From Planctomycetia bacterium (GTDB lineage: Bacteria > Planctomycetota > Planctomycetia > Gemmatales > Gemmataceae): a stretch of 64,000 bases of DNA. The DNA lies in contig SYHD01000215.1 of assembly GCA_005799265.1 (NCBI GenBank), forward strand, positions 22,984 to 86,983. Reading direction: 5' to 3'. Positions 24,146-61,638 of this stretch are shown piece after piece. The position numbers and the translations under genes were made by a program. A model generated the notes under the pieces. That model did no database searches and was not told the DNA's origin. It saw only the letters and a program-made list of their open reading frames with translations. Each line of letters opens with the position of its first letter. The first letter of the stretch is position 1.

Positions 24146-24206
24146 GTTAGTCGGACGCGCAAGCGACGGACATAGAAAAAATCCGTCGCTTGCGCGTCCG
24201 GCTAAC
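24146..24206. repeat. Palindromic repeat, PAL-2 (GTTAG(T/C)CGGACGCGCAAGCGACGGA arms), intergenic copy
   Basis: 25-nt arms 24146-24170 and 24182-24206 with a single T.G position; the 11-nt loop is CATAGAAAAAA. Lies between convergent genes. It contains the TAG stop (24202-24204) of the minus-strand gene. Confidence 0.95.
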
Positions 24207-26442: not shown

Positions 26443-26622
26443 CGGATTCCCTTGTGTGATGGGGCGTTTGAACGTGGACATTGTAGCGTGAATCCTTCGG
26501 AAATCTCGTGCATCGGGGCCGGCGGTAGAAGATAATCGAAGTGTCGTCGCGACGACCGATTTCGGTCGTGATGTGTGAAACCGCAAGCTTCGATTGGGGA
26601 TTCTCCTTTTGAGCGCATCCAC

Positions 26623-30812: not shown

Positions 30813-30826
30813 GTTGAATCCGTATT

Positions 30827-30844
30827 CGTTTAGCGTTCGCAGTA
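30827..30844. repeat. PAL-1 half-element (left arm only: CGTTTAGCGTTCGCAGTA)
   Basis: Matches the arm of 20231-20289. In minus orientation, GCGAACGCTAAACG ends 14 nt upstream of ATG 30812. Confidence 0.5.
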
Positions 30845-30931
30845 TCACTCGCGAGTAAGAGATCCCATTGCCACTATTCGACCGTTTCACGAAGAAAAGA
30901 GCAACGAAGAAATCGGAAAGGTGGGACCCTA

Positions 30932-37573: not shown

Positions 37574-40318
37574 TTACCACACATACTCCTGCACAATCTT
37601 CGCGCTGTTCCCCTGGAAGCGCACCGGCACCAGCAGTTCCATCTTCTTGCCCGACTGACGAATGATCGGCTCCGCCCCCGCTTCGATACGCATGCGCCAG
37701 GCGCCAATGCGATACCAGCCGTCCTTCTCCGCGGCGATCTGGTCGGCGACCGCAGCGCGATAGTACAGCTTGTCGATCGGATTGTCCGTCGTCAATGTGA
37801 ACGTTCGCCGAATCGCGGGGCTTTGCTTCGTGTCGATCGCGTTCGGCATGTCATCGATCTGGATCTCGTTGAACGAATACAGAAACGTCGGCCGTTGATC
37901 GTCGGTCAAGCGATAGCCTTTGAACTTGTAGCCGAGCTCCTTCGCGGTTTTCGCCGGCCACGCTTCGTCTGTTTTGGCCAGGACGAAAAAGCTGACGCCG
38001 GTCGGCAATGTGATCACGTTTTCGCCCGCCGGCGGCTCGAAGCCGACGCCGCGATCGGTCCAGTGGCGTTTTGCGTCGATGAAGGCGCCTTGCCAGATCA
38101 TCGCCAGGCGAATGTCGTTGGCGTCGAAAGCGATATGGGCGCGTTCGGGGTAACCGACGCCGATCGCGCGCGAGCCGGCCCCTTGAATAAAGTTGCGATA
38201 GATGATCGCATCACCAACCGGGATGAGCGGGATTGTCTTGCCGGTGGTGCCCGTCGGCATCGTCGCCGCCTTGCCGTCTGCCAGATACGTCCAGATCGCT
38301 TCGATCTGCGTCTCCGCCTTGCCGTCAAGCACCGTCTTCAACAGCGTTCTACCTTCGGGGAACGACGACGGCATGCGCGTGCCGGGCCGGTATTTGCCCG
38401 GATCGATCATGTAGTTGAAGAACCAATCGTGGTTCAAACGCTGTGTCATGATGGCGAGATCGATGCCTTGAACACCTTCGGCTTTGTTGCCCGCGAAGGT
38501 GTGGCACTTGATGCAACCGAACGCTTGCGGTCCGACCATGTGCCGGGCTGCGAACTTCGCTTTGTTGAGCGGTTCGGGCAGCACAACCTTTGGCGCCTTC
38601 TCCGGGGTATCGAGGCTGGCGAACATATCCACCAGATTGGTGGGGTCGCTGCCGAATCTCGGCATGCGCGTGTGCATGTACGGACGATCGTGCGAGCCTT
38701 CTTCGATAATCTTCTTGAGATACGCGGGCTTCAGTTTCGCGCCGACTCCGGTCAGGGAGGGCGGGATGCGGCCTTCGTCTCCCATTTCGGGCATGACGGT
38801 CGTGAAGTGCTTGTTGAGATCGTCCTCGACGCCGCCGAGCTTGTCGCGTTCGTGGCAGGCAGAACAGTTTTTCAGTTTCATCGTGAACGTAAGAAGTTCC
38901 TTCTTCTCCAGCGGCGTCGCCCAGGGCTTCATCTTAATGGCCGCGCTCAATGCGGCCTGTTGCTGCTGGCTGAACCCGAACCAGGGGACACCTTTCTTCG
39001 GGGTTACGTCGAGGCAGCCACCGACGGGCTTCAAGTCCGTGACAACGGGAGCGTTCAGGCGTTTGGTCTCCTTTTGCATCTCATGGCAATTTGCACAACC
39101 CATCGACGCGAACAGGTCCTTGCCTTTCTTGATCAATTCCGGCTGCAGCGGAGAGTTGTCAGGCTCCTTCGCGTTGACGATCGGCTTCACCTCGTCCTTC
39201 AACTGAACCATCGATCCCAGCGGCATCTTGGCGATGCCCGGCCCCTCGACTTCGACGGCAAGCTCGAAGCCGCCGCCGCCATTGAAGACGCCCACAGTCA
39301 GCTTGTGCGTTCCCTTGGCGAGCTTGGCCTTGCCCGACTTGGTTGCCGGCGCGTGGATGCCGTCGTGGTTGACGACGACCTTGCCGTCGATCCAGAGCTT
39401 CGAGCCATCATCGCTGGTGAGATGGAATGTGTAGCTGCCTTCGGTTTCGATCTTGAGCAGACCGTCAAACTTGAGAGCGCAATTGTTGAGGCGTTTGGCC
39501 ACGCTCAACTCGAAGTCCGGCGCCTCGCCGGTCTTGACGGGCTTGAGCTTGTCGAAGTCGGGGAGGTTTTTCCAGGCGCCCTCGTAATAGGCGTAATTCA
39601 TGTTGCTGCTCGATCCGGCGCCGGCCGTGCCTTGCATCAGATAATTGGCGACGTCGCTCGCTTCCTTCACCGTCAAGAGGCCCGGCATGCGCCCGTGCGG
39701 TCGCGTCTCGTGCGGGTTTTGCACGAACGACCGCAAACTGGCGAGCGTGTACTTCGACTTGAGATTGCCGAGCGCAACGGATGTGGCAAAAAGTTTGTCC
39801 TGATCGCCGCTGGCGTCGCGCGTGCCGTGACAGGCGACGCAGCCGACCTTGTGATACAAATCGCGGCCCAACGCGATCCCCTTTTGATCAGCTCGCGCCT
39901 GGGCCGGCGTTCCCGTCGAGGCCAGGAAGTGCACGAGGGCTTCAACCTTGTCCTTCTTTTCTTCCGCGTCGAGACCGGCGAAGAGGTTCGGCATCGTGGT
40001 GCCCGGCTTGACCTTGTGCGGATCGGTGAGAAACTCGCGCAAATGGCTGCGCTTGACGCGGGCGCCGACTTCGTCAAGAATCGGCCCCGGCTTGGCAATA
40101 TTCGGCGGCGCCTCGGGCGTCGAATGGCAACTGGCGCAGTTGAGCGTTGCGTATAGCAGGCGGCCTCCTTCGGTATCCGACTTGCCGTCCGCGTGAAAGC
40201 GAACGAAGCCCGGAACCGTCGGGCCGGCATGCTTACCCCCTTGTGCCCAAGCGGGGCTGGCGGTGATTAGACACGAGATCGCGAGTAAAAACGAGGCGAT
40301 GCGTACGTGAAACGGCAT
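37574..40318 (-). CDS. Secreted multi-haem c-type cytochrome with PA14 domain
   Basis: 914 aa with signal peptide MPFHVRIASFLLAISCLITASPAWA. CxxCH x5 (CASCH, CVACH, CANCH, CSACH, CIKCH). PA14-like GSYTFHLTSDDGSKLWIDGKVVVNHDG. Confidence 0.8.
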   Translation of the reverse strand: MPFHVRIASFLLAISCLITASPAWAQGGKHAGPTVPGFVRFHADGKSDTEGGRLLYATLNCASCHSTPEAPPNIAKPGPILDEVGARVKRSHLREFLTDPHKVKPGTTMPNLFAGLDAEEKKDKVEALVHFLASTGTPAQARADQKGIALGRDLYHKVGCVACHGTRDASGDQDKLFATSVALGNLKSKYTLASLRSFVQNPHETRPHGRMPGLLTVKEASDVANYLMQGTAGAGSSSNMNYAYYEGAWKNLPDFDKLKPVKTGEAPDFELSVAKRLNNCALKFDGLLKIETEGSYTFHLTSDDGSKLWIDGKVVVNHDGIHAPATKSGKAKLAKGTHKLTVGVFNGGGGFELAVEVEGPGIAKMPLGSMVQLKDEVKPIVNAKEPDNSPLQPELIKKGKDLFASMGCANCHEMQKETKRLNAPVVTDLKPVGGCLDVTPKKGVPWFGFSQQQQAALSAAIKMKPWATPLEKKELLTFTMKLKNCSACHERDKLGGVEDDLNKHFTTVMPEMGDEGRIPPSLTGVGAKLKPAYLKKIIEEGSHDRPYMHTRMPRFGSDPTNLVDMFASLDTPEKAPKVVLPEPLNKAKFAARHMVGPQAFGCIKCHTFAGNKAEGVQGIDLAIMTQRLNHDWFFNYMIDPGKYRPGTRMPSSFPEGRTLLKTVLDGKAETQIEAIWTYLADGKAATMPTGTTGKTIPLIPVGDAIIYRNFIQGAGSRAIGVGYPERAHIAFDANDIRLAMIWQGAFIDAKRHWTDRGVGFEPPAGENVITLPTGVSFFVLAKTDEAWPAKTAKELGYKFKGYRLTDDQRPTFLYSFNEIQIDDMPNAIDTKQSPAIRRTFTLTTDNPIDKLYYRAAVADQIAAEKDGWYRIGAWRMRIEAGAEPIIRQSGKKMELLVPVRFQGNSAKIVQEYVW

Positions 40319-46092: not shown

Positions 46093-47391
46093 TCAGCCCA
46101 CAATCTCCTGCACCGGCAGCGCCTCGCGCAAGAATGGCCGCATCCGGGCGTCGGTCGTGTCGATGCCCACCAGCCGATACAAGCTCGCCGCGAACTGCGC
46201 GGGACCGACCGGTGTGTGCGCGGGGCGTGAACCAGTGGCGTCACTGGCGCCGACGATGCGGCCCCCTTCGAGACCGCCGCCCGCCAGCAGATACGTGAAG
46301 CAATACGGAAAGTGATCGCGCGCTCCGAATCGATTGACGCGCGGCGTGCGGCCGAACTCGCCGCCGGCGACGATCAGCGTGTTCTGCAACATGCGGCGTT
46401 CTTGCAGATCGGTCAAGAGCGCGGTGAGGCCCTGATCAAGCCGTGGGCACAAATGCTGTTCCATGCGGACCATGCCGCCCAGGTCGGCGCCGTGCACGTC
46501 CCAGGCGTCCCAGGCGGGGCCGTCGTACCATTTGATTTGCACGAATCGGCTCCCCGCTTGTACGAGCCGGCGGGCCAGTAAGCACGATTGGCCGAACAGA
46601 TTGGCGCCGTAGCGGTCGCGCAACGCTTCGTTCTCGCGCGCCAGGTCGAATGCGTCGCGCACCTGCGTCGACGTCAGCATGTCGACAGCACGTTGATAGT
46701 TTTGATCCATGCGTTCGATGGCTTCGTTGGCGTGCGCCGTCTGACGGAAGCGATCGACCGCAGTCAAGAGTTCGCGGCGCTGGCTGAAGCGGTCGGCCTG
46801 CATGTCGGCCGAGAGTTGGAACTGCGGCAGCGCGGCGCGGTTGCCCGTCGGGTCGGCGATCTCGACGGGGAAGAACGGGGCGCCCAGACGGCCGCCGCCA
46901 ACGCCGAGCCGCGAGCCGATGTGTACATACGGCGGCATGTTGCCGCGGTAGCCCTGGATGCGCGAGATGACGGCGCCGTATGATGTCGTCTCGCCGGGGA
47001 AGCCGGTCAGCATCGGGATCGGCGAATGGGCGTCGATGTTGTGCGACATCGACCGCACCAGCACGCACTTGTCCATGTGCCGCGACAGGCGCGGCAACAG
47101 CTCGCAGATCTGCATGCCGGGGACGTTAGTCTGGATCGGGCCGTATGGGCCGCGAATCGTGTCGGGGGTATCGGGCTTGGGATCGAAAGTCTCGAAGTGA
47201 CTCGGGCCACCGTCGAGCCAGAGAAAGATGACCGAGACATCGCGGCTGCCGGCGCCGGGCGATGCGGCCGCTTTCGTGCGGAACCAATCCGCGAGCGTAA
47301 GCCCGGCGATGCCCAGCCCGCCGACGGTGAGCATGTCGCGTCTTGTCAGGCCGCTGCAATTGCGAACCGCGGTTTTGCCGATGGTGAACAT
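46093..47391 (-). CDS. DUF1501 family protein (second copy, no adjacent DUF1553 partner)
   Basis: ATG 47391. LTRRDMLTVGG Tat-like motif. LDGGPSHFETFDPKPD, WDVHG and GGEFGRTPRVN. Confidence 0.85.
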   Translation of the reverse strand: MFTIGKTAVRNCSGLTRRDMLTVGGLGIAGLTLADWFRTKAAASPGAGSRDVSVIFLWLDGGPSHFETFDPKPDTPDTIRGPYGPIQTNVPGMQICELLPRLSRHMDKCVLVRSMSHNIDAHSPIPMLTGFPGETTSYGAVISRIQGYRGNMPPYVHIGSRLGVGGGRLGAPFFPVEIADPTGNRAALPQFQLSADMQADRFSQRRELLTAVDRFRQTAHANEAIERMDQNYQRAVDMLTSTQVRDAFDLARENEALRDRYGANLFGQSCLLARRLVQAGSRFVQIKWYDGPAWDAWDVHGADLGGMVRMEQHLCPRLDQGLTALLTDLQERRMLQNTLIVAGGEFGRTPRVNRFGARDHFPYCFTYLLAGGGLEGGRIVGASDATGSRPAHTPVGPAQFAASLYRLVGIDTTDARMRPFLREALPVQEIVG

Positions 47392-47417
47392 GAGCTGCCC
47401 CCCCCCCTGAAATATCG

Positions 47418-48170
47418 TCACGCGGAGCATGCCGATAACGGTCTTACCTGAACGATGAATTGTGCAAATCCGAGTGGGTCCAACGTGCGCTCGATGCGAA
47501 ACGAGCGCCCGAGTACGTCGGAACGCAGCCAGCCTTCCTCGGCCGGCGTCGCTTGATACTCTTCATTTGTGAGTCGAAGTATGTCGAAGACTACGCCGTC
47601 ACCGCGCGCGTCGACAAGCCAATACTCGGGAATCTGTGCCTTCCGGTACAAATCGCGCAGCGTCTTGAGATCCTTGACCTTCGAGCCGTCGCTGACGATC
47701 TCCAGGATGATGTCTGGAGTTCCCTCAAGTCGCATGTAGCCCAGGTTTTGGCCGGGGATCAGCCGCAGTCTCCCGGCCTGCATCGTGGCCCAATGATAGT
47801 AAAGGCCGTCGGGTTCGGTTGACAGGTTGGCCGCCTCGTTAACGAGCAGCATTCGATCCGGCACGAAACGTCCGGTTGGGTATTGTACCAAGAAAGAGTA
47901 GAACATGCCATTGAAGGCCTGTTTGGCCTGGTTGTGCGTAAGGAATTCTTCCATGCTCGCGTCCACCCAGATTTTGCCGTCAAGATAAGAAACCCAGCCA
48001 TTCTCCGGGTACGCGTCAGATTCTACCCAGCGGCGATAGTCATCCAGGCTATCGATCCAACCGGGTATCGTGATCTTGTTCTCGACAACAACATCGGCGC
48101 GGCGCGTAGTCGCCTTCACTGTAGGCACAGCGACGCTCGTTTGCGGCATAGGTGAGAGGACAGTGCTCAT
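47418..48170 (-). CDS. Uma2 (DUF820) family endonuclease-like protein
   Basis: The C-terminal core PDIILEIVSDGSKVKDLKTLRDLYRKAQIPEYWLVD fits the Uma2 PD-(D/E)xK pattern (PD..vEv.S......d...K...Y...gv.eYW.vD). Confidence 0.7.
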   Translation of the reverse strand: MSTVLSPMPQTSVAVPTVKATTRRADVVVENKITIPGWIDSLDDYRRWVESDAYPENGWVSYLDGKIWVDASMEEFLTHNQAKQAFNGMFYSFLVQYPTGRFVPDRMLLVNEAANLSTEPDGLYYHWATMQAGRLRLIPGQNLGYMRLEGTPDIILEIVSDGSKVKDLKTLRDLYRKAQIPEYWLVDARGDGVVFDILRLTNEEYQATPAEEGWLRSDVLGRSFRIERTLDPLGFAQFIVQVRPLSACSA

Positions 48171-48307: not shown

Positions 48308-50938
48308 TCACGGGCGAGGCTCGGAAAAAGGCACGAGCCGATAGCGCAGGCCGAGCTTGCTCGCTGGCGTCGGCGTGGTGCACAAGGCGATCAACAGCGT
48401 GTTGTTTTGGCCGCGCTGGATCAGGCGCGGCTGGTCGAGCTCAATCTTCACGCCGAAACCGCCGCGGTCGATAATGACGGCGTCGGCCTCGACCGCGTCC
48501 TTGGCGAGCAGACCGAGCTCCTTGCCCTTGAGGGACAGGATGATGTCGGTCGTGTCGGCCCCCTTCTTGGCGGCTTTGCCCTTTTTCTTGGGCAGGAATG
48601 GGATCATCTCGTAGCATTCGGCGACTTTGCCCCGTTCCTTATAGGGGATCCACAGGTTCAACAGATCGTTGTGGCCGGTCTCACGCAGGTTGACGGTGCA
48701 GACAATAGCGTCATCCTCGTAGGTGTACGAACGGGCGATGTGGACGGCGTTTTCGCGGATGGCGCCGGAGCTGGTGACGACGTTCTTGACGAGCTTGGCG
48801 TCGTCGTGCTCGCCGTTGGCCCCGACGAGCGGTTTGCCGTCGGTGGTTTGGCCGACGATCGAGTGCAGATGGAAGTTGCGCCAGAGATGGATCGCCATGC
48901 CCTCGCCGTAGCTGCCGTTGAGGGTGGAGGCGAGTACGGGACCATGGCTGGGGATGTGCAGCTGGCAAATGACGCCTCCGGAGTAGCCGATCTGGCCCGC
49001 GAAGGCAAGGCCGATGAACGCCGGCGTGATGCGGCCATGATAAGACAATAGGTAATAATTCTTGCGTCGGGCGGCGAACCATTCGTCGCCGCCATTGACG
49101 CTTGCGGTGAAGTCGGGGCCGGGCAGTCCCTTCCAGGCGAAGGGGCCGTCCTTCGCGGGCGCCATCGGCGGACCATGGCTCGTGCGCGAGCTCCAGGGCG
49201 ACGCGGAAACCTCCTCGCTCAGGGTGTAGCTGTAAACCATGCGCATGCGATCATGGACCTTCTTGAAGCGCTCTTCGCCGAGGTCGGCAATGATCGTTGG
49301 CCAGGTGTCGATGACGTAGCTGCCGTAGTGGTGATCATAGCCGAAGCCTTCTTGACAGGGCCCCGATTTGCCGATGCCAGAGCGCTCGCCCCAACCGCCG
49401 GTCGCGAAGCGGTCGAAGTACGTCTCGGCAAGTTGTTTTTGCAGCGGATCACCGGTGGCTTCCTGGCAATAGCGCAATGAGGCGACGACCTGGGCGAATG
49501 AGTTGCCATTGGTCCGCGCCCAGGTGACGCAGAAGGCGAGCCGATCGCCGCACAGGAGGAAGGCGTCGCGGACGATTTCCTTGGCCTCGGCCGGGGCGTC
49601 CGACTGTTTGAGGATGCGCCAGGCCGGTCGCCAGAACTGCCAGGCGTAGTTCGAGTATTCATAGCCCATGTTGGCCCACGGTCCGCCGACCGCGACCGCT
49701 GGAATATCGCCCGGTCCGATCGAGCGCAGGCCGTGATAGAGATCGCGCAGCGCGACGTTGAGCGCCTGACGATTTTTGTTGGCGGCATAGTGGTGCATGA
49801 TGCCGTCGCACTTCGGCGGCGTCCAGTAGATGGCGTTGACGTTGAGAAAGCCGGGCTGGGTCGCGAGGCCGAGGAAGTGGACGTCACCGTTTTTCCCCTT
49901 GCCGAGTGGGAGTTCCTTGCCGTCTTGCTTGACGATAAATTCCTCGGCGGGGAACTTCTTGAGCCAGTCGTGCAGGCGAACCTGGAACGGATGCCAGAAG
50001 ACGCGCTCGTCGTGATAGATGGCGCCCCCCTGTATCGCCTTAGCCGTCTTTTCATCCGGGGTGAAGACGCCAACCACGGCCGGCACGCCGCGATGCGCGA
50101 TCTCGCTGTCCTTGTCGCGCAGCAGCTTGACGTTGACGAGGTAATCGTTCGGCCCCTCGGTCGTGTCGAGCGTCAGGATCTTGTCGTCCCATTTGCCTTT
50201 CACGGCGAACGGAATTTGCTTGACCATGTAGCCGTCGCCGGTCGTGCCGTCGAAGAGTTTTTCGCCGTTGGGCGCGGTCAATGTGAAGCGGCGCGTGTGC
50301 GGCGTGTCGAACTCCGCGAGCATCAGGAATAAGCCGTTAGTCCCACGTGGCACGTAGAGGTAGCTGCGATTGGCCTTGCCACGATCGCGCAAGGGCGAAC
50401 CGTGCAGCCAGGTCGGATGGCCGCACACACCGAAAGTCAAATCGGGATCGAGCGACAGAGTTACGTAATGATCCGGGAAGCCGACAATCTGAATGCGATA
50501 GATCCCCTTGCCGCCCCCCTGGATCGGATAGGTAAACGTCCTCTTGGTATGATTGCCTAGTCTATCCGCGGACGAGAACGCGCTCCAGCGCACCATCGGC
50601 AGCGTCCCCTGCATTCGGCAATAAGCGTAGTACCACGCCTCATGGTCCCAGGCGCCGGCTGGGGGTAGGGTCGCCTTGGAGACGATGCCGTCATCGGCAA
50701 TCACCGTGCGCACGACCGGTTTGCCCGCCGGATCGTAAATCTTGACGAGGACCTCGCGTGGCCCCGTCTCCAACAGGTTGAGATCGCGCACGTCGAGCTT
50801 GACGGTGAAGTCCTTGCCATCGGGATTCGGCACATACGCGGTGATGCCGTCGTACAGGCGGAAGGTCTCGGCCGCGTGAACAGCGCCGGGCACCAAGGTG
50901 GAAATAATTGCCGCGAAAATGTACCGCTGCCAGTGCAT
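48308..50938 (-). CDS. Large secreted hypothetical protein
   Basis: ATG 50938 gives MHWQRYIFAAIISTLVPGAVHAAE. 876 aa with no family recognised. Confidence 0.6.
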   Translation of the reverse strand: MHWQRYIFAAIISTLVPGAVHAAETFRLYDGITAYVPNPDGKDFTVKLDVRDLNLLETGPREVLVKIYDPAGKPVVRTVIADDGIVSKATLPPAGAWDHEAWYYAYCRMQGTLPMVRWSAFSSADRLGNHTKRTFTYPIQGGGKGIYRIQIVGFPDHYVTLSLDPDLTFGVCGHPTWLHGSPLRDRGKANRSYLYVPRGTNGLFLMLAEFDTPHTRRFTLTAPNGEKLFDGTTGDGYMVKQIPFAVKGKWDDKILTLDTTEGPNDYLVNVKLLRDKDSEIAHRGVPAVVGVFTPDEKTAKAIQGGAIYHDERVFWHPFQVRLHDWLKKFPAEEFIVKQDGKELPLGKGKNGDVHFLGLATQPGFLNVNAIYWTPPKCDGIMHHYAANKNRQALNVALRDLYHGLRSIGPGDIPAVAVGGPWANMGYEYSNYAWQFWRPAWRILKQSDAPAEAKEIVRDAFLLCGDRLAFCVTWARTNGNSFAQVVASLRYCQEATGDPLQKQLAETYFDRFATGGWGERSGIGKSGPCQEGFGYDHHYGSYVIDTWPTIIADLGEERFKKVHDRMRMVYSYTLSEEVSASPWSSRTSHGPPMAPAKDGPFAWKGLPGPDFTASVNGGDEWFAARRKNYYLLSYHGRITPAFIGLAFAGQIGYSGGVICQLHIPSHGPVLASTLNGSYGEGMAIHLWRNFHLHSIVGQTTDGKPLVGANGEHDDAKLVKNVVTSSGAIRENAVHIARSYTYEDDAIVCTVNLRETGHNDLLNLWIPYKERGKVAECYEMIPFLPKKKGKAAKKGADTTDIILSLKGKELGLLAKDAVEADAVIIDRGGFGVKIELDQPRLIQRGQNNTLLIALCTTPTPASKLGLRYRLVPFSEPRP

Positions 50939-51118
50939 GCCGTTTCCCCCTGTGAAGCGATGAAGTCGAACTCGGATCGTCATCAACATAAACGACGCGG
51001 CGACGAGTTGCAAAGGAAATCAGAAATGCCGCTTGCGGCCGATGGCTTCGCGACTACTTTTTACGCGCTAGAATGCTAGGATGGCAACAAGAATCCTCAA
51101 GTCAACGCAGGTGCAATC

Positions 51119-51514
51119 ATGAAAACGCTTGGCCTCGTGCTTGTATTGCTCCCCATCATGGCGCTCGCCGCCGACGCGCAGGACATTCGCAAAGGCGGCT
51201 CCCTCATTGGCCGCGTTGAGTCCAACGGGGACGTGCGCATCAAGGGCGCCATCGTCGGCCGCTTCGAGGCGAACGGCGACATCCGCGCCAAGGGGGCGAT
51301 CGTTGGCCGCATCGAAGCAGACGGCGACATTCGCAAGAAAGGCGCGATCGTCGGCCGCGTCGAGAAGGACGGAGACGTGCGCATGGGCGGAAAAATCGTC
51401 GGCCGGGTCGAGAAGGACGGCGACATTCGCAAGGGAGGCAGCATCATCGGCAAGGCCGCGGGCGTCAAGAAAGAACACGCGGCGGCGATCTTCTTCTTTG
51501 GTTTTTTTGAATAA
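51119..51514 (+). CDS. Secreted protein made of 16-residue tandem repeats
   Basis: Signal peptide MKTLGLVLVLLPIMALAADA. Five and a half copies of (I/V)R.(K/G)G.I(V/I)GR(V/F/I)E..GD (48-nt period, 51185-51463). Hydrophobic tail AAAIFFFGFFE. Confidence 0.65.
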   Translation: MKTLGLVLVLLPIMALAADAQDIRKGGSLIGRVESNGDVRIKGAIVGRFEANGDIRAKGAIVGRIEADGDIRKKGAIVGRVEKDGDVRMGGKIVGRVEKDGDIRKGGSIIGKAAGVKKEHAAAIFFFGFFE

Positions 51515-51515
51515 C

Positions 51516-52613
51516 ATGATCCACCTTCGCATGCTGCCATTTGTGTCGGCCATGATCTTGCTCGCGAGCCCGTGCCTCGCCCAAGACACGCCGCCCTCGA
51601 TCTTGCTCTTCGATTCCGGCAAGGAAGGCTATAAACGCTATCGCATCCCCGCCTTGATCACGACGAAAAATGGCCGCGTGCTCGCCTTCTCCGAAGGACG
51701 CAAAGGCGGAGGCGGACTCACGGGCGATATCGACATCGTCCTCAAGCGTTCCAGCGACAGCGGCAAGACGTGGACGCCGCTCGAGGTCGCCCTCTCAGGC
51801 AAGGGGCATACGCTTGGCAATCCGTGCCCCGTCGTCGATCGCAACGACGGCACGATCTGGCTCGCCGTCACTCGGAGCCACGGGCAAGACACCGAGGACG
51901 CCATCGTCAAGCGGACGAGCCGGGAGGCGACGCGCGTTCTCGTCACCTCCTCCAAGGACGACGGCAAGACCTGGGCTCCTTTGCGCGACATCAGCGATAC
52001 CTGCCGCAAACCGAATTGGACCTGGTACGGCACCGGCCCTGGCATCGGCATCCAGCTCAAATCCGGCCGACTGCTGCTGCCGTGCTATCACGCCGAGGCG
52101 ATTACGCAGATTTACCGAAGCCACACGATCTACTCTGACGATCACGGCAAGACCTGGCAGCTAGGCGAATCGGTCGGCGAACACTGTACCGAATGCGCGG
52201 TCGCCGAACGAAGCAATGGCGAGGTCGTCCTGCTTTCGCGCACCATCAAGGGCAAGCAAGAGAAGACGGCCGCTTTCAGCAAAGACGGCGGGAAGACATG
52301 GGCCGACATCAAGACGGATGCGAACCTGTACGACCCTAGCTGCCAGGCGTCGCTTTTGCGATTGGACGACACGAAGTCGCGCTGGCTCTTTTGCCATCCC
52401 GCCGGGCCGGGGCGGCGCGATTTGACAGTGCGCACAAGTGACGACGAGGGAAAGACGTGGACGAACGCCAAGCTGCTGCGCAAAGGGGACAGTCAGTATT
52501 CGTCGCTGGCGAAGATGCCGGACGGTTCGCTCGGTTGCCTGTACGATTGCTGGGTGGATGGCAATTATCGGATGTTCTTCACGCGATTCAGTTTGGAGTG
52601 GCTGTCAAATTAA
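51516..52613 (+). CDS. Exo-alpha-sialidase (GH33, BNR/Asp-box)
   Basis: ATG 51516 lies 1 nt after the TAA of the previous gene. Signal peptide. YRIP motif. Five Asp-boxes (SSDSGKTW, SKDDGKTW, SDDHGKTW, SKDGGKTW, SDDEGKTW). Confidence 0.85.
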   Translation: MIHLRMLPFVSAMILLASPCLAQDTPPSILLFDSGKEGYKRYRIPALITTKNGRVLAFSEGRKGGGGLTGDIDIVLKRSSDSGKTWTPLEVALSGKGHTLGNPCPVVDRNDGTIWLAVTRSHGQDTEDAIVKRTSREATRVLVTSSKDDGKTWAPLRDISDTCRKPNWTWYGTGPGIGIQLKSGRLLLPCYHAEAITQIYRSHTIYSDDHGKTWQLGESVGEHCTECAVAERSNGEVVLLSRTIKGKQEKTAAFSKDGGKTWADIKTDANLYDPSCQASLLRLDDTKSRWLFCHPAGPGRRDLTVRTSDDEGKTWTNAKLLRKGDSQYSSLAKMPDGSLGCLYDCWVDGNYRMFFTRFSLEWLSN

Positions 52614-52671
52614 CTCTCAAGCCCGCAGGTGACGCAGGAGCCTGCGGGGTTCCAGGTTGAGGACCAACCCT

Positions 52672-54135
52672 ATGCGCATCGCCACCGGCGGCATCTCGCA
52701 CGAGACCAGCACCTTCGCGCCGACGCCGACCACGCGGCGCGAGTTTGAAAATGGCATCGGCTTCTTCCGCGGCGGAGACATCCTCGCGCGGTTTTGCGGC
52801 GCCAATAACTGCACCGGCGGCTTCATCACCGGAGCCGACCGCCACGGCTACGAGCTGGTCCCGCTCCTGTGGACCTTCGCCTATCCCGGTGGCTTGATTC
52901 CCCGCGCCGATTACGACGCGCTGAAAGCCGAATTCCTCGATGGCTTGAAGAAAGCGCTCCCTGTCGATGGCGTGCTGCTCGATTTGCATGGCGCCATGGT
53001 CGTCGAAGGCATCGACGACGGTGAAGGTGATTTCATCGCTGCGGTGCGCCGCGTCGTCGGGCAGAAATGTCCGATCGTCGCGACGTTTGACCTGCACGGC
53101 AATCACACTCAGGCACGCATCGACGCAGCCGACGCCGTCATCGGCTTCGACACGTATCCACACGTTGACATGGCGGATCGCGGCGTCGAGGCGGCGGACC
53201 TCATCGTGCGCATCATACGCGGCGAAGTGCGGCCCGTGACGGCGTTTCGCGATTTGCCGCTGTTCTGGAGTGCGGCGTGCCAGGTGACGGGACATCCACC
53301 CATTGATGAAGCATTTCGTCTGGTTCACGAAGTCGAACGTCGTCCGGGCATCCTTTCGGTGACGCTGGCGACAGGCTTCCCTTGGGCCGATGTGCCGCAC
53401 ATGGGGGCGTCGGTCATCGTCGTCGCGGACAAGGACGCCGGACTGGCTCGCAAAACCGCGGATGAAATCGGCGACTGGGTTTGGGCGCGGCGTGAACGCT
53501 GGCATCGCAAGCCGTTGACGATTGACGAGGCGCTTGGCCAGCAAGCGACGCGATTTCCCGTCATGCTCGCCGACATGGCCGACAACACCGGCGGAGGCGC
53601 ACCAGGCGATTCGACGGAGGTCTTGCGCACTTTCGTGGAACGCGACTTGCGTAACGCGCTGATTCTCTACCTGGTCGATCCTGATGTCGCCCAGCAAGCT
53701 CATGCGGCGGGCGTCGGCAAGCGCATTCACGTCGATCTCGGCGGCAAGTCGCATCCGATGCAAGGAACGCCCGTGCCGCTCGATGTCGAGGTAGTGGCTC
53801 TTTCGGACGGAAAATTCACCTATGACGGTCCCATGTATGGGGGCCTTACCGGCGATCTCGGCACATCCGCCTGGTTGCGGCAGCGCGGCGTCAACGTCGT
53901 CGTCGTCAGCGCCCGCATGCAGCCGCTCGATCAAGCGTTCGCCCGCGCGCTCGGCATCGATTGTGCCGGGATGGAATACATCGCCGTCAAATCCGCCGTC
54001 CACTTCCGCTCCGGCTTCGAGAGGATTGCCGGCGCGATCCACAACATCGACGCCCAGGCGATCCACACGCACGATTTCGGCAGGCTGCCGTATCGCCAGC
54101 GCCGCAAGCCGATGTTTCCGCTGGATGGAAAATGA
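52672..54135 (+). CDS. M81 family metallopeptidase (MlrC-like)
   Basis: MRIATGGISHETSTFAP is the characteristic MlrC N-terminus. The length (~487 aa) fits. The antisense 527-aa ORF is rejected. Confidence 0.75.
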   Translation: MRIATGGISHETSTFAPTPTTRREFENGIGFFRGGDILARFCGANNCTGGFITGADRHGYELVPLLWTFAYPGGLIPRADYDALKAEFLDGLKKALPVDGVLLDLHGAMVVEGIDDGEGDFIAAVRRVVGQKCPIVATFDLHGNHTQARIDAADAVIGFDTYPHVDMADRGVEAADLIVRIIRGEVRPVTAFRDLPLFWSAACQVTGHPPIDEAFRLVHEVERRPGILSVTLATGFPWADVPHMGASVIVVADKDAGLARKTADEIGDWVWARRERWHRKPLTIDEALGQQATRFPVMLADMADNTGGGAPGDSTEVLRTFVERDLRNALILYLVDPDVAQQAHAAGVGKRIHVDLGGKSHPMQGTPVPLDVEVVALSDGKFTYDGPMYGGLTGDLGTSAWLRQRGVNVVVVSARMQPLDQAFARALGIDCAGMEYIAVKSAVHFRSGFERIAGAIHNIDAQAIHTHDFGRLPYRQRRKPMFPLDGK

Positions 54136-56408: not shown

Positions 56409-59400
56409 CTACGAAATCACGCGCGTCGGGCAGCCCGCATACGCACGCCGCGGCAGCAGCCGTTCGCGCTTCATCACGACGCTATGCTCGGCGACCGTGG
56501 TGTACTCACCGATGTCGGCGCCATACAGCAGGACCGCGGCGTTGCCCGCCGTCGCGTTTCGACGGATACACACGTAGTCGATTTTGAGCACCCGGTCCTC
56601 GAAGGTATGGGCCTGGAATTGACAGTTCACCGTCGCGCCATCCTCGAATTCCAACATGTCCGGGTCCACCACGTGGGCGAAGCCGCTGCCCAGGAGGACG
56701 TGTCGGCCTATCTTCATGCCCATGGCTCGCAAGTACCAATTCAGCACCAAGGTTCCTTCCAGCGCGGCAAGCGGTCCATGGGCCCAGTAATGCCACGCCA
56801 CGTATAGAAAATCCCAGCGGCTGCACCAGCACGACCAAAGCGGGTGAATCCCAGGGCGAACACGCCCGAGCAGGATCCATTTGAGCGCCAGCACCAACAC
56901 GCACTGCGTCGCGACAATGCCCAATTCGACTGCGGGCGCTACCACCAGAAGCAGCACGACTAGGGAGGTTGTCGCTTCCACATGCAAAAGCACGCTCAAC
57001 CATGTGACGGCGATCAACATCGGCGCCAACGGCAGCGCGAAGCGCAGTAGTTCCCAGAACATGCGACTGACGTAGCGTATGCCGGACGGCTCATGGGTCA
57101 GACCGCGATCGACCTCGATGATCTCGCGTTTGGGAAGCTCGAACGGCGAATGACCGAACCAGGACGTGCCAGAGCGCATGATCGTGTCGTCGGCCACCGT
57201 GCTGACGCCGAGGAGAATGTCGTCGGGCAATTTTTGGCCGGCCGCGATGACGGCATGATTGCCCAGGAACGTATTCTTGCCCAGGCGAACCCCAGCCAGC
57301 GTGACGGTTCCTTGTTGAATGCGGGGGCCGGCCAGATAAATGCCGTCGGCAAAGAAAGTCTCCGCGCCGATCTCGACGAGTTCCGGGACCGTGTCGATAA
57401 TCGTGCTGATTTCGCAGCCGCGTCCGATTTTCATGCCTGCCGCACGAAGCCAAACGGGCCAGAACAAAGTCCCGCTGAGCCATTTGCTCGCAGCATCGAG
57501 GATGCCGGCCTTCAGCCAAACGCGCACGTAGGCCAGACTCCAGCGGCTAATCACACCTTCCTGTACCTGTCCCAGCGCCCGCATGGCGATGGCCTGCAAG
57601 ATCAGCGTTATTGGCACGGCCAGCACCATGAGCCCGGCGCCGAGAAGGAGCGGCCAGGCGTCCTGCCAGGGATTGAGCAGCATCTCTCCCGCGTGCTCGA
57701 CATTCATTCCTTCAAACTGCCAGAACACGAGGGCCAGCGCCGCGGCCGGCAATGTCAGGAACAGCCCCACCGCCATGCGTGCCAGGATCAGGACTACGCC
57801 ATGTAGCGCGGGAGAAAGTTCGCGGGCGCCGTCGGGTATCGACGGCGGCGGCGAGGCTTGTCCTGCCGGACGGGCCGGAACGCCATCCCAGCGCTCGCCG
57901 CGCGGTATGTGACCATGCGCTGGCAGAAACGATAACGCCGCCAGACGGGAATTCGCCTCCAGTTTTGAATGCCGCGCAACGCCCGCGCGGATCTCCAGAG
58001 TGCAGCCGTTTTCCAGGAAGATCGGGCCGACATGGACCTGGCCATCTTGGTATTCCACCACCAATAACGACGCCTCCTGGCTGAGCGTCACGTCATCGCC
58101 GATGTCGAGGAGGTCCCACCCGCCTCTGAGTAAATCGACGCCGCGATGGATGTGTACCCGTTTGCCAATGCGCGCTCCCAGGGCGCGCAGGACGGCATGC
58201 TGAAAAACCGTTCCTTCGAGGATCCGCCACGGAATCAACCGAACGATTTGCTGAACCATCCAGTTACGCACGTAGAAGCTGCCCCAAGCAGGCGCCTGCA
58301 TCGGTCGATAGCGACCGATCAGCAGTTTCTTGGCAAGCACCGCCGCGGCCATCGTCAACATCGAGTAGAGCAAAAAGCCCCCGATGCCTAGTAGCGGCGT
58401 CAACAGCAGCAGTTGAAGAGAACTGAATGAACTCGTCAGGTAAGGCAAAGCCTGGAAAAGCAGCAGATAGCCAAGCGAGGCGGACGCGATGAGGCCCAGG
58501 AGCAGCCAGAGCATCTGGACGAACGTAGCCAAAGCCGGATGTCCCTTGGGGCGATCGGACTCCCTGTCAAGGACGGGTCTGGATTCGCCTGCGGTTCGGG
58601 CGAGCTTGGCCAAGCCGGCGGCAGTGCGCGCTTCATATACGTCGCGCACCGTCAACGACGACGTGACTGGGTCGTCACGCAACATCGAGATCAACTGGGC
58701 GGCCAACAAGGAATCACCACCGAGGCCGCCGAAGAAGTCATCGGCCGTGGACACACGCGAAGGTGTGCCCAGGATTTTCTGGAACGCCAACGTCAATTTT
58801 TGCTCAAGCGAGTCCTTGGACGCCAGGATTGGCTCATTCGGAACCGGAGCCTGAACTTCGAGCACCGGTAGGGCCGCGCGATTGAGTTTCCCCCCCACGC
58901 TGGTGGGAAGTCGAGCCAGCAGTCCAAAATGACTGGGAACCATGTATGCAGGCAGTGTCAAGTGCAGGGCAGACCGGAGCGCGTCGAAGCCCGGAGGAGT
59001 GGCGGCATCGGCCGCGATGATGTACGCCACGATCTTTTGCTGCGGCCCGGTTCCCTGAACCTTACACGCAGCCTCACGGACGCCAGCGCATGCCATCAGT
59101 TGCGCCTCGATCGCCTCTAGCTCGATACGGTAGCCGCGAATCTTGACTTGCGCGTCGATCCGCCCATGACAGTGAAAACGCCCCTCGGCATCGCAATGCA
59201 CAAGGTCGCCCGTTCGGTAAATGCGGCCCAGTTCGGGATGATGCGGGAATTTTCGCGCGGTCAGCGCCGGGTCATTCAGATAGCCGCGCGCCAGTGCGAC
59301 GCCCCCCAAACACAATTCGCCCCGTTGGCCATCGGCGACGACTTCGAGCGCATCGTTCAACACCCAGGCCTTCACTCCCGGCACGGGCTGGCCAATCGTA

Positions 59401-60383
59401 ATCACTTCGCCGGGCTCGATCTTCCCGCGCACGGAGGTGACAGCGCACTCCGTCGGACCATAGCCGTTCACCAAACACCCGCCAGGCGCCCATTGTTCGG
59501 CCACGTCCGAAGGCAAGGCTTCGCCTCCGACGTACACGAGACGTAGATCAGGCAAATTCGCGTCTGCATCGATGTGTCCCATGGAACGAAGCATCGTCGG
59601 CGTGGGACAGAGTACCGAGATGCGCTCCCGACGCAGCCAGGCCGGCAAATCCGGCCCCAGGCGTGCTGCCGTGTCATCAACGACGACCAGCGTGGCGCCC
59701 GCGGCCAGCGCGAGCCAAGTCTCCTCGATCGAGGAGTCATAAGCGCACGACGAATTCTGTGCCACGCGATCGTCCGGCGTGAGCGAAAATTCAGGAAGAT
59801 CACCGCGCACGAGATTGGCAATGGCGGCGTGCTCGATCATGACCCCTTTGGGTCGCCCCGACGTGCCGGAGGTGTAGATGAGATACGCGAGGCTGCGCGG
59901 TGTCAGCCAGGGCGCCGGTACTGCGGACTCGATGGGGTCATGGGCGAGAGCAAGCCAGGCGACGACATCAAGAGAGTATGGCACATCGAGTTGGGCGCCG
60001 CGCACGCGTGCCTCACCCGCAGCGTCCGTAAGAAGAACGACAGCGCGCGAATCCCGCAGAATATCGCGAATCTGTTCGTCGGGGAATAGAGGATCAAGAC
60101 AGGTGTAAGCCGCGCCCGCCTTCATCACGGCGAGTTGAGCAACATAGACGTCCGGAGAAGTTCGCGGCAACAAGATGGCGATCACGCATTCTTCTACGAC
60201 GGTGTCGCGCAGGAGGTTGGCGAGGGCATCGCTTTGTCGCCGTGCCTCGTCATACGTGAGCGTGCGCCGTACGGGACGTTCGGTGCCAGGCGGCGCGTCC
60301 AGCGCGATTCGCTCGGGCCAGAGTCGGGCCGCACGCTCGAAAAACTCATGCAGCAACACGGGCTCATCCGCAACCGCCGGCAT
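56409..60383 (-). CDS. Pls/PosA-type single-module NRPS (homopoly-amino-acid synthetase-like): A domain, T domain, three hexapeptide-repeat domains separated by TM segments
   Basis: A-domain cores MKAGAAYTCLDP, LAYLIYTSGTSGRPKG, NGYGPTE, YRTGDL, GRIDAQVKIRGYRIELEAIE and GGKLNR. T core DDFFGGLGGDSLLA. After that come TM pairs alternating with three LbH-like blocks (GARIGKRVHI..., AAGMKIGRGCEI..., AMGMKIGRHVLL...). No C or TE domain. The start is ATG 60383 (TTG 60440 possible). Confidence 0.8.
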   Translation of the reverse strand: MPAVADEPVLLHEFFERAARLWPERIALDAPPGTERPVRRTLTYDEARRQSDALANLLRDTVVEECVIAILLPRTSPDVYVAQLAVMKAGAAYTCLDPLFPDEQIRDILRDSRAVVLLTDAAGEARVRGAQLDVPYSLDVVAWLALAHDPIESAVPAPWLTPRSLAYLIYTSGTSGRPKGVMIEHAAIANLVRGDLPEFSLTPDDRVAQNSSCAYDSSIEETWLALAAGATLVVVDDTAARLGPDLPAWLRRERISVLCPTPTMLRSMGHIDADANLPDLRLVYVGGEALPSDVAEQWAPGGCLVNGYGPTECAVTSVRGKIEPGEVITIGQPVPGVKAWVLNDALEVVADGQRGELCLGGVALARGYLNDPALTARKFPHHPELGRIYRTGDLVHCDAEGRFHCHGRIDAQVKIRGYRIELEAIEAQLMACAGVREAACKVQGTGPQQKIVAYIIAADAATPPGFDALRSALHLTLPAYMVPSHFGLLARLPTSVGGKLNRAALPVLEVQAPVPNEPILASKDSLEQKLTLAFQKILGTPSRVSTADDFFGGLGGDSLLAAQLISMLRDDPVTSSLTVRDVYEARTAAGLAKLARTAGESRPVLDRESDRPKGHPALATFVQMLWLLLGLIASASLGYLLLFQALPYLTSSFSSLQLLLLTPLLGIGGFLLYSMLTMAAAVLAKKLLIGRYRPMQAPAWGSFYVRNWMVQQIVRLIPWRILEGTVFQHAVLRALGARIGKRVHIHRGVDLLRGGWDLLDIGDDVTLSQEASLLVVEYQDGQVHVGPIFLENGCTLEIRAGVARHSKLEANSRLAALSFLPAHGHIPRGERWDGVPARPAGQASPPPSIPDGARELSPALHGVVLILARMAVGLFLTLPAAALALVFWQFEGMNVEHAGEMLLNPWQDAWPLLLGAGLMVLAVPITLILQAIAMRALGQVQEGVISRWSLAYVRVWLKAGILDAASKWLSGTLFWPVWLRAAGMKIGRGCEISTIIDTVPELVEIGAETFFADGIYLAGPRIQQGTVTLAGVRLGKNTFLGNHAVIAAGQKLPDDILLGVSTVADDTIMRSGTSWFGHSPFELPKREIIEVDRGLTHEPSGIRYVSRMFWELLRFALPLAPMLIAVTWLSVLLHVEATTSLVVLLLVVAPAVELGIVATQCVLVLALKWILLGRVRPGIHPLWSCWCSRWDFLYVAWHYWAHGPLAALEGTLVLNWYLRAMGMKIGRHVLLGSGFAHVVDPDMLEFEDGATVNCQFQAHTFEDRVLKIDYVCIRRNATAGNAAVLLYGADIGEYTTVAEHSVVMKRERLLPRRAYAGCPTRVIS

Positions 60384-60816
60384 CCATTCACAGGCCTCAA
60401 AGCTTGTTTCTGCCGTTCCACTTAGCGATGTGATTTCCAAGTCGTATTCTCACTTCCGCGGCAATGAATTCTCTGGCACATTCCAGGCGCCTTCGATTTC
60501 GAAATCAGACCTCGCATTGGCTGAGTCGCGATCTCGCCCCAAATTGGCGTCTCGCTTCCGTGTTGCACGTATTGACTCAACCCCATTCCGCGCCCCTGGT
60601 TTCGCGCCTCTCATATTCTAAGTTTTTCTCGTGATTCCGATAGCCGTATCGTGCTGGAATTCCTTGAATTTTATCGCGTCGAAAGGATCGAACGAAGAGC
60701 GGTCAAATTCTCGTTAGGTTGAGCTGATTTCTCATGGATCTCTCACCCCCCGATTGATACGATCCATGGTTTGATCGAACCGGTACGATCAAGGACATCC
60801 ATCGGGAATTCACACC

Positions 60817-61638
60817 ATGAAGCGTACGCTTGTCTCGTTGTCGTGTATTCTCTTTGCCTGTATCGCACTCACGCGCGCAGCGGAACGGCAAGCCCCAGAG
60901 AAACAGAGCGTTTACCTTCGCGTGCTGGTTCCCACCGAAAACAGCAAAGTGTTCATCGACGACAGCCTCACCAAGCAGACAGGCGTCAGCCGGCTTTACG
61001 TCACGCCGCCGCTGGATTCCGACAAGCAGTTTAGCTACACGGTCACCGCCAAGTGGTGGCCGAATAACTACACCCAAGTCATCCGCACTCGCGTGGTCCT
61101 TCTGAAGGTAGGCCAGGAAGTGGAGGTCGATCTGCGTAAAGCGGATGACAAGATCCCGGACGGCTTCCACATCCGCTATGTCCCCACACCGGAAGAGGTC
61201 GTCGACGCCATGTGCAAGCTCGCCGGCGTCGGCGCCGACGATGTCGTCTACGATCTCGGCTGCGGCGACGGCCGCATCGTCATCACCGCCGTACAGAAGT
61301 TCAAGGCCAAGCGAGGGGTCGGCGTCGATATCGATGACAAGCTGGTCGCCGAGTCGACCAAGAATGCCAAGGCCGCTGGGCTATCGGACAAGGTGACGTT
61401 CCGCCAACAGGACGTGTTGACGCTCAAGGACCTGGGCGACGCCAGCGTGGTCATGATGTACATGGGCGAGGATGTGAACAAGAGATTGGCACCGATCCTG
61501 AAGAATACGCTCAAGCCGGGGTCGCGCATCGTGTCGCACGATTTCGAGATGGGCGACTGGAAGCCGGATCAAAAGCTCGTGGTCATGGACGACGAAGGGG
61601 ACGACCACGAACTGTATCTCTGGAAGATCGCCAAGTAA
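60817..61638 (+). CDS. Secreted TIGR03000-like domain + class I SAM-dependent methyltransferase fusion
   Basis: Signal peptide MKRTLVSLSCILFACIALTRA. VYLRVLVPTENSKVFIDDSLTKQTGVSRLYVTPPLDSDKQFSYTVTAKW fits the planctomycete TIGR03000 domain pattern. VVYDLGCGDGRIVITAV is SAM motif I. Confidence 0.7.
   Translation: MKRTLVSLSCILFACIALTRAAERQAPEKQSVYLRVLVPTENSKVFIDDSLTKQTGVSRLYVTPPLDSDKQFSYTVTAKWWPNNYTQVIRTRVVLLKVGQEVEVDLRKADDKIPDGFHIRYVPTPEEVVDAMCKLAGVGADDVVYDLGCGDGRIVITAVQKFKAKRGVGVDIDDKLVAESTKNAKAAGLSDKVTFRQQDVLTLKDLGDASVVMMYMGEDVNKRLAPILKNTLKPGSRIVSHDFEMGDWKPDQKLVVMDDEGDDHELYLWKIAK

Follow-up and report, generated by a model that had tools for sequence, protein, structure and literature searches.

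A 64,000-nucleotide stretch of contig SYHD01000215.1 from a Planctomycetia bacterium (hereafter the window) was analysed in the present study for one gene, which encodes a membrane-anchored protein resembling a nonribosomal peptide synthetase (NRPS). The complete open reading frame (ORF), at positions 56409..60383 of the reverse strand, runs uninterrupted through 3975 nt and encodes 1324 amino acids, followed by a stop codon at 56409-56411. The product is an intact, single-module enzyme of the Pls/PosA superfamily, belonging to a deep lineage marked by the adenylation specificity code DSECYGGVTK, and we regard it as fairly probable that it acts as an iterative polymerase producing a cationic oligomer from an arginine-like monomer. 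The gene is one ordinary member of its clade, and its value lies in the clade rather than in the locus.

Domain organisation and substrate pocket

Domain content, membrane topology and specificity code were read from the protein itself, and the fold of its C-terminal part was predicted; all synthetase features are on the reverse (-) strand. The N-terminal part comprises one adenylation (A) and one thiolation (T) domain. Pfam matches were AMP-binding at residues 15-369 (E 2.7e-74), PP-binding at 529-593 (E 2.8e-8) and Hexapep, and the NCBIfam model TIGR01733 matched residues 43-439 with 359 bits, above its cut-off of 317. The A domain (58869..60341; residues ~15-505) has all core motifs, readable in the translation as LKAGAAYTCLDP, YTSGTSGRPKG, AYDSS, NGYGPTE, GELCLGG..ARGY, YRTGD, GRIDAQVKIRGYRIE and GGK499, the last contributing Lys499 of A10. 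The T (carrier) domain (58605..58799; residues 529-593) bears the phosphopantetheine site, Ser558, within GGDSL (codon 58710-58712). Condensation, thioesterase and reductase families gave no match in the synthetase protein in the Pfam and NCBIfam scans. These results agree with the original prediction, made from the DNA letters and their ORFs, which had described a complete A domain and a GGDSL thiolation domain in the absence of condensation or thioesterase domains. In the carrier-domain core (58701-58727 in the window), 112 of 120 close homologues share the GGDSL motif, and nearly all canonical Pls-family representatives have GGHSL. In multimodular NRPSs, GGDS is typical of carriers feeding epimerisation domains.

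The PDB matches of the A domain were NRPS A domains. Scores of the A-T part were 259 bits with LgrA, 242 with GrsA, 205 with the TycA core, 197 with the Pls A domain (7WEW, and so below GrsA and LgrA) and 189 with the PosA core, and its identity was 35-38% to Lys-code members of the family and 31-39% to ordinary NRPS modules.

The ten Stachelhaus positions were read by motif anchors at residues 216, 217, 220, 259, 284, 286, 307, 315, 316 and 499. Nine of these fall in the substrate-pocket segment (59436..59738; residues 216-316) as D216, S217, E220, C259, Y284, G286, G307, V315 and T316, and the tenth is K499, giving the code DSECYGGVTK, identical to the one hand-aligned to GrsA numbering in the original prediction. 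Asp at code position 1 (D216) and Glu at position 3 (E220) are kept, as in all characterised Pls/PosA-type members. The remainder departs both from the Lys code seen in epsilon-poly-L-lysine synthetase sensu stricto, DAESIG[TS]V[VI]K, and from the Orn (ornithine) code of PosA sensu stricto, DMEHNG[TS]V[ST]K, with five of ten positions matching in each case. The earlier reading that Glu239 (GrsA numbering) is retained while the rest of the code is unlike that for Lys, leaving the monomer open, holds against DAESIGTVVK, with its five matches in ten.

Crystal structures of PosA from Acinetobacter baumannii (ATY43264.1; PDB 8G95-8G98; Patel & Gulick, Commun Biol 2023, PMC10522769) allow a comparison with this pocket. 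In PosA the Glu at position 3 contacts the side-chain amine, the length of side chain accepted is restricted by the Met at position 2, and the delta-amine is held by Thr304 and Ser313; the position-3 Glu is conserved in all characterised cationic homopolymer synthetases (Supplementary Fig. 21 legend of the same paper). PosA has the same architecture as the window protein and differs in its code, DMEHNGTVSK: where it has Met218, Thr304 and Ser313, the window protein has Ser, Gly and Thr. With Glu, Ser, Gly and Thr at the PosA-equivalent positions, the pocket is predicted to accept a cationic side chain that is larger and differently held, which is consistent with the assay of L-arginine described below.

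The C-terminal part was matched by TIGR02353 (NCBIfam, Pls/PosA family, equivalog_domain) over residues 623-1319, corresponding to model positions 3-694/695, with E 1.7e-109 and a score of 367.1 bits that does not reach the curated cut-off of 423.1. Comparison with the family model thus bears out the homology that had been proposed for this half of the protein, over the full length of the model. Hydropathy indicated six transmembrane (TM) segments in three pairs, at residues ~617-647/655-687, 858-888/910-936 and 1110-1133/1140-1172. TM hairpin 1 (58323..58535; TM1 and TM2, AlphaFold2 fragment helices 2-31 and 34-67) is followed by soluble block C1 (57819..58316; residues ~690-855), TM hairpin 2 (57576..57812; TM3 and TM4) by block C2 (57063..57566; residues ~940-1107, with the best Pfam Hexapep stretch at 1019-1047), and TM hairpin 3 (56868..57056; TM5 and TM6) by block C3 (56412..56861; residues ~1175-1324). 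The three units of TM pair plus soluble block are 24-26% identical to one another. An AlphaFold2 model of the last 703 residues, computed from an 81-sequence alignment (A1), has a pLDDT of 92.4 and a pTM of 0.91, and comprises three helical hairpins, with hairpins 2 and 3 likewise as in the hydropathy profile, and three blocks each predicted to form a left-handed beta-helix. Hydropathy and model thus agree with the earlier description of about 700 C-terminal residues in which TM pairs alternate with three beta-helix blocks. The positive-inside rule places the beta-helix domain on the cytoplasmic side of the membrane, the same side as the A-T module.

The best Foldseek matches of the model in the PDB were hexapeptide (left-handed beta-helix) acetyltransferases (probability 1.0, E ~1e-4), with TM-scores that are low because each match spans one third of the model; searches of the PDB by sequence or fold returned no solved Pls-type terminal domain. 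Serine, maltose and galactoside acetyltransferases, which are trimeric hexapeptide-repeat enzymes, were the best structural matches to each soluble block. They differ from the window protein in being homotrimers of separate soluble chains, where the latter has three diverged copies in one chain with interleaved TM hairpins. Hexapeptide acyltransferases use a phosphopantetheine-thioester donor (acyl-CoA) and have their active sites between beta-helices.

In alignment A1, the DSECYGGVTK clade and canonical members have the same residue, each at 95% conservation or more, at 67 terminal-domain positions. Among them is the QxHxFEDRxxK motif, invariant in both groups, which in the window protein reads Q1257-A-H1259-T-F-E-D-R-V-L-K1267 within C3 (56583..56615). 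His1259 has no counterpart in C1 or C2 in the repeat alignment, a further difference from the homotrimeric acyltransferases, as the invariant His motif occurs in C3 alone among the three blocks. The motif is a candidate catalytic one, and the 67 shared positions that include it argue for conserved chemistry.

The architecture as a whole resembles that of two characterised polymerases. Pls of Streptomyces albulus (BAG68864.1; Yamanaka et al. 2008, summarised in PMC10522769) likewise has a single A-T module without condensation or thioesterase domains, and a terminal domain of ~700-730 residues in which six paired TM helices (three pairs) accompany three soluble blocks, each of ~180 residues. 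Pls also shares Asp235, Glu239 and Lys517 (GrsA numbering), and its terminal domain is homologous over its full length; it differs in its code, DAESIGTVVK, and in having GGHSL in place of GGDSL. The published model of the PosA terminal domain, a helical bundle with three packed left-handed beta-helices in approximately three-fold symmetry, has the same fold as our AlphaFold2 prediction.

The DSECYGGVTK clade

A TIGR02353 score below the cut-off is not peculiar to the window protein. Four same-code relatives, from Sphingomonas (L001), Gemmatimonadetes (L002), Singulisphaera (L004) and Phycisphaeraceae (L006), scored 341-368 bits, and three Lys-code relatives (L008, L012, L015) scored 561-605. 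Lys-code relatives differ from the window protein both in this score (560-605 versus 367 bits) and in a terminal domain that is ~25-29% identical to its own. The shortfall was systematic in all clade members scored, which indicates a divergent sister lineage rather than a member of the canonical Pls/PosA family. The NCBI names of clade members are correspondingly generic, mostly 'amino acid adenylation domain-containing protein', with one 'lgrD 2' and one 'hypothetical protein'; 'Pls/PosA family' never appears among them and is given to many relatives with Lys-type codes.

The extent of the lineage was examined with a HMMER scan of the terminal domain against 1.84 billion representatives clustered at 50% identity, which returned 2563 proteins at E<=1e-3, of which 445 reached E<=1e-30; codes were surveyed in 78 full-length representatives among the best 150. 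Where the terminal domain was at least 33% identical to the query, 39 of 42 proteins carried DSECYGGVTK exactly or with one substitution, the exceptions being P0243, P0263 and P0300. Representatives at 24-29% identity mostly had Lys (DAESIGTV[VI]K), Orn (DMEHNGTVSK) or beta-Lys (DGESISVVNK) codes, and a few had codes that were Dap (diaminopropionic acid)-like or unassigned. Reference codes for the Lys, Orn, beta-Lys and Dap enzymes are those of Supplementary Table 2 in PMC10522769. Neighbour-joining analysis of the terminal domain, with the window protein as query, separated 40 clade members from 37 others by an internal branch of 0.37 substitutions per site. The split was recovered in 60 of 60 bootstraps when the borderline proteins P0300 and P0310 were left out, and the exact split in 18 of 50 when both were included. 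Mean terminal-domain identity was 41% within the clade and 28% between the clade and the others.

The code co-varies with the clade, and the window protein carries the clade's majority form. Full-length 50%-identity representatives grouping with the clade in the terminal-domain tree had the code exactly (34/41) or with one substitution (5/41), leaving P0243 and the borderline P0310, and 73 of the 120 close homologues had an identical code. It was exact at the Sphingomonas, Gemmatimonadetes, Singulisphaera, Phycisphaeraceae and Acidobacteriota loci, and differed at one position at an Anaerolineae locus. Such near-invariance across the clade indicates strong selection for one substrate. Members were found in Planctomycetota, Acidobacteriota, Verrucomicrobiota, Gemmatimonadota, Chloroflexota, Myxococcota and Alphaproteobacteria (Sphingomonas), and the clade accounts for ~60-70 of the best 150 clusters at 50% identity. 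A back-translated pattern scan of genome contigs caught mostly generic NRPS A domains, with ~13 of 79 loci being true family members, none of them from the genome that contains the window.

Proteins carrying the labels Gemmataceae, Gemmata and Urbifossiella are among the closest relatives, which share 60-65% identity with the window protein. The closest, planctomycete-type relatives (P0002-P0011, and the proteins named as Gemmataceae, Gemmata, Urbifossiella and Planctomycetaceae) were observed to have a derived pocket, DSE[ACSV]HGDV[TV]K, with Tyr299 replaced by His and Gly322 by Asp, and the window protein keeps the widespread DSECYGGVTK. The derived pocket suggests that the substrate has drifted within planctomycetes.

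Several clade representatives depart from the usual architecture. P0243 (1349 aa, on a 112.8-kb contig) is an apparent natural chimera, with an assembly artefact being possible: its A-T part shares 53% identity with canonical members of the Pls family and has a Dap-like code, DFEALGTVTK, and GGHSL, and its terminal domain is 59% identical to those of DSECYGGVTK-clade members. This combination suggests that the clade's terminal domain may serve a diamino-acid polymerase. Four representatives (P0244, P0251, P0252 and P0258; 1691-1728 aa) are extended at the C-terminus by a further ~370 aa that form a multi-pass membrane region, which in the two scanned, P0244 and P0252, matched Pfam HGSNAT_cat (PF07786) and DUF418 (PF04235) and is trans-membrane acyltransferase-like; those of P0251 and P0258 resemble it by eye. 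The extension may bear on export or on the acceptor. P0041 (1500 aa, 59% identical to the window protein, code DSECYGGVTK) has an N-terminal SET-domain (PF00856) fusion, which hints that substrate or product amines may be N-methylated in some lineages. Homologues of HGSNAT/DUF418 or SET were not found elsewhere in the window.

The code itself has been reported before. Patel & Gulick tabulated D S E C Y G G V T K with substrate unknown (PMC10522769, Supplementary Table 2) for homologues from Bdellovibrionales (OFZ39577.1) and Novosphingobium (WP_072382105.1). The Bdellovibrionales A domain showed modest activation of L-arginine, the highest seen, without elevated activity for Lys, Orn, Dab (diaminobutyric acid) or Dap, and the authors considered that the true substrate may be a larger analogue suited to polymerisation. 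With an identical code and the same architecture, these two proteins are the closest described relatives of the window protein and belong by code to the same clade; they come from other phyla, and the assay was confined to the isolated Bdellovibrionales A domain. Identity between the window protein and that domain is roughly 45-55%, estimated over legible stretches only of a machine-read (OCR) copy of the published DNA, which is error-ridden and contains frameshifts; the Sphingomonas protein at L001, with the same code, is 54% identical to the window protein. A previous genome count for the planctomycete Singulisphaera acidiphila also includes one non-alpha poly-amino acid (NAPAA) cluster (PMC12402505). 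The original prediction's claim of new biology was consequently overstated, given the tabulated code and the NAPAA clusters already counted in planctomycetes, and the locus is a further member of an already noticed but unsolved clade. No later paper than PMC10522769 on DSECYGGVTK or on a poly-arginine synthetase was found in the literature searched.

Gene structure and genomic neighbourhood

The frame is open across 56409..60440 (-), with translation from ATG 60383 giving 1324 aa and from TTG 60440 giving 1343 aa (19 aa more). Gene callers chose ATG 60383 on identical public metagenome contigs, and the identical protein sequence occurs on seven independent public contigs. Homologues have 24-27 residues before the LLHEFF motif, and the window protein has nine when counted from the ATG and 28 from the TTG; as the latter is nearer to the homologues, the choice between the two starts is not settled. 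The divergent intergenic region (60384..60816), which presumably holds the promoter and 5' leader, measures 433 bp from the ATG to the next gene at 60817, or 376 bp from the TTG, and is comparatively AT-rich (GC 0.52-0.55 versus 0.60-0.65 in the synthetase gene). Both flanking genes are on the opposite strand, divergent upstream and convergent downstream, making the synthetase gene monocistronic by geometry. The lengths, base composition and monocistronic arrangement had all been predicted in this form.

A riboswitch or leader RNA was sought as a clue to the monomer; Rfam gave no family at the gathering threshold in the whole window, nor any at E<=1 within the 601 nt upstream of the gene. Promoter and terminator scans of the upstream region returned no signal above shuffled expectation, the promoter scan using a sigma-70 consensus that is not expected to fit planctomycete promoters.

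The neighbouring genes appear functionally unrelated to the synthetase. They comprise the divergent gene at 60817-61638 (+), which encodes a secreted class-I methyltransferase with a signal peptide and is unrelated to the SET fusion of P0041, an Amidohydro_3 protein, a convergent SGL lactonase, a protein without family match, an M81/MlrC-like peptidase and a BNR sialidase-like protein. The last two are encoded by adjacent genes, with the BNR/sialidase-like gene at 51129-52613 (+) followed by that for the MlrC-like metallopeptidase at 52657-54135 (+). The latter, 2.3 kb from the synthetase stop and on the other strand, is the nearest peptidase gene; the pair is not conserved beside synthetase homologues, nor is the peptidase conserved in the relatives. 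No transporter family was found among the ten neighbouring ORFs scanned, in keeping with the prediction that no obvious exporter or degrading peptidase is adjacent.

Neighbourhoods were compared using Pfam tables of five contexts and an all-against-all BLAST of the flank ORFs of 13 loci, namely the window and those of four close homologues and of eight clade members at greater distance. A search for conserved neighbours that might give a clue to monomer supply, export or degradation yielded only spurious overlapping-frame ORFs and ubiquitous Ser/Thr kinases as shared features. An SGL lactonase is adjacent in the window and at L083, and a lactonase of an unrelated family at L084; we judge these adjacencies to be local synteny or chance. 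The synthetase gene thus stands alone, as do its counterparts in the relatives.

Elsewhere in the window, genes typical of planctomycetes (33535-35862, 46093-47430, 1538-3568, 27807-30890 and 37574-40318, all (-)) encode PSCyt1/PSCyt2/PSD1, DUF1501 and large cytochrome-c/PA14/DUF7133 proteins. The PSCyt1/PSCyt2/PSD1 and DUF1501 genes and the Gemmataceae-labelled closest relatives are consistent with the planctomycete context originally proposed. A 131-aa ORF at 51119-51514 (+), a public gene call without Pfam match, has a signal-peptide-like N-terminus and approximately seven tandem 14-residue repeats (~GDIRKxGxIVGRVE). Two ORFs, at 48308-51013 (-) (901 aa) and 24202-26637 (-) (811 aa), had no Pfam match at the thresholds used.

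Proposed activity and alternative explanations

By analogy with characterised Pls and PosA, the cytoplasmic A domain would adenylate a cationic alpha-amino acid, with Asp216 binding the alpha-amine and Glu220 the distal positive group, and the small residues Ser217, Gly286 and Gly307 would leave more room in the pocket than the Lys and Orn enzymes have. L-Arginine or a longer analogue of basic character is the most likely monomer, in preference to Lys, Orn, Dab and Dap, an assignment that draws on the one published assay of a same-code homologue; within the iterative-polymerase reading, L-arginine itself is a possible but rather doubtful choice. The phosphopantetheine arm of Ser558 would then take up the aminoacyl group in thioester linkage. 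The terminal domain, a predicted single-chain pseudo-trimer of left-handed beta-helices set on three TM hairpins, has the fold of the hexapeptide acyltransferases that depend on CoA thioesters, a kinship that lends plausibility to an acyl donor delivered by phosphopantetheine and to a His base. It would pass the aminoacyl group to the amine of a free monomer or of the growing chain, probably with His1259 as base, and repeated cycles without a thioesterase would yield a cationic oligomer or polymer, short and polydisperse, which would exit the cell. That the product is a cationic polymer would follow from family membership.

Several points weigh against this interpretation. By sequence comparison the A-T part is no closer to Pls/PosA than to ordinary NRPS modules, and the terminal domain, which scores under the TIGR02353 cut-off, shares only ~28% identity with its canonical counterparts. 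The clade has no member with a known product, and no conserved tailoring, resistance, degradation or export gene was found in the 13 loci. The L-arginine activity is only 'modest', the authors of PMC10522769 themselves proposing a larger analogue as the true substrate. Arginine also lacks a second primary amine, and a homopolymer with isopeptide bonds of the known type is therefore not straightforward; alpha-linkage or acylation of the guanidino group would be needed. Finally, the HGSNAT/DUF418 domain in ~10% of clade representative clusters hints at another acceptor.

One alternative, which we consider unlikely though worth retaining, is that the enzyme is a one- or few-shot aminoacyl transferase whose terminal domain would place the T-domain-bound basic amino acid on an acceptor within or beyond the membrane, such as a lipid head group or an amine or hydroxyl of an envelope glycan, in the manner of a self-contained Dlt- or MprF-like charging of the envelope. 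HGSNAT moves acyl groups across the membrane to glycan amines, and the fusion with HGSNAT_cat and DUF418 occurs in four of the 41 full-length clade representative clusters (P0244, P0251, P0252, P0258), which is nevertheless a minority of the clade, and no homologue is present in the window. A stand-alone, strongly conserved gene that crosses phyla without cluster partners resembles envelope housekeeping more than a secondary-metabolite cluster, and arginine, the best monomer assayed, is poorly suited to isopeptide polymerisation; the characterised relatives, however, are all polymerases. Although the terminal domain is highly diverged from those of the polymerases, it keeps every one of their invariant residues, the His motif of C3 included, and the P0243 chimera joins a terminal domain of this clade to a Dap-type A-T module.

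A divergent synthetase for a known polymer (epsilon-poly-L-lysine, delta-poly-ornithine, poly-Dab or poly-Dap) would have the same domain architecture and the retained Asp235, Glu239 and Lys517, and A-domain codes predict substrates imperfectly. This explanation is nonetheless quite improbable: five of ten code positions match Lys (DAESIGTVVK) or Orn (DMEHNGTVSK), the position that determines chain length is Ser, the polar residues with which PosA holds the amine are Gly and Thr, the same-code Bdello_A domain lacked elevated Lys, Orn, Dab or Dap activity (PMC10522769), and the canonical-code representatives lie across the split supported in 60 of 60 bootstraps. We attach hardly any weight to the possibility that the gene is silent or in decay and at present serves no function in its host. 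This might be suspected from the lack of a recognisable promoter and of partner genes, and from the window having yielded no phosphopantetheinyl transferase, for which no systematic search was made. The sigma-70 scan, however, is not expected to suit planctomycete promoters, and the 3975-nt frame is uninterrupted, with the catalytic motifs and Ser558 all intact, an identical protein on seven contigs and high conservation over thousands of homologues.

To our knowledge, seven cationic homopoly(amino acid)s have been described, all from diamino acids, and one of them, epsilon-poly-lysine, is an industrial food preservative. We tentatively suggest, at somewhat less than an even chance, that the DSECYGGVTK lineage, spread over at least seven phyla, makes a product undescribed for this enzyme family from arginine or a longer basic amino acid. 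Such a product could be a polycation resembling oligo- or poly-arginine, with alpha or guanidino linkages, or, as hinted by the HGSNAT/DUF418 fusions, an aminoacyl decoration of an envelope component. The clade is a separate and abundant branch that NCBI's curated model does not name Pls/PosA, and for this reason it is easily overlooked. The testable question concerns the clade's monomer and product rather than this particular gene. Identifying the product could add a natural polycation, perhaps built from arginine and hence akin to cell-penetrating peptides, or could instead reveal a new envelope modification in diderm soil bacteria. If either form of this suggestion is correct, the lineage would represent a widespread and overlooked aspect of the surface biology or chemical warfare of soil bacteria.

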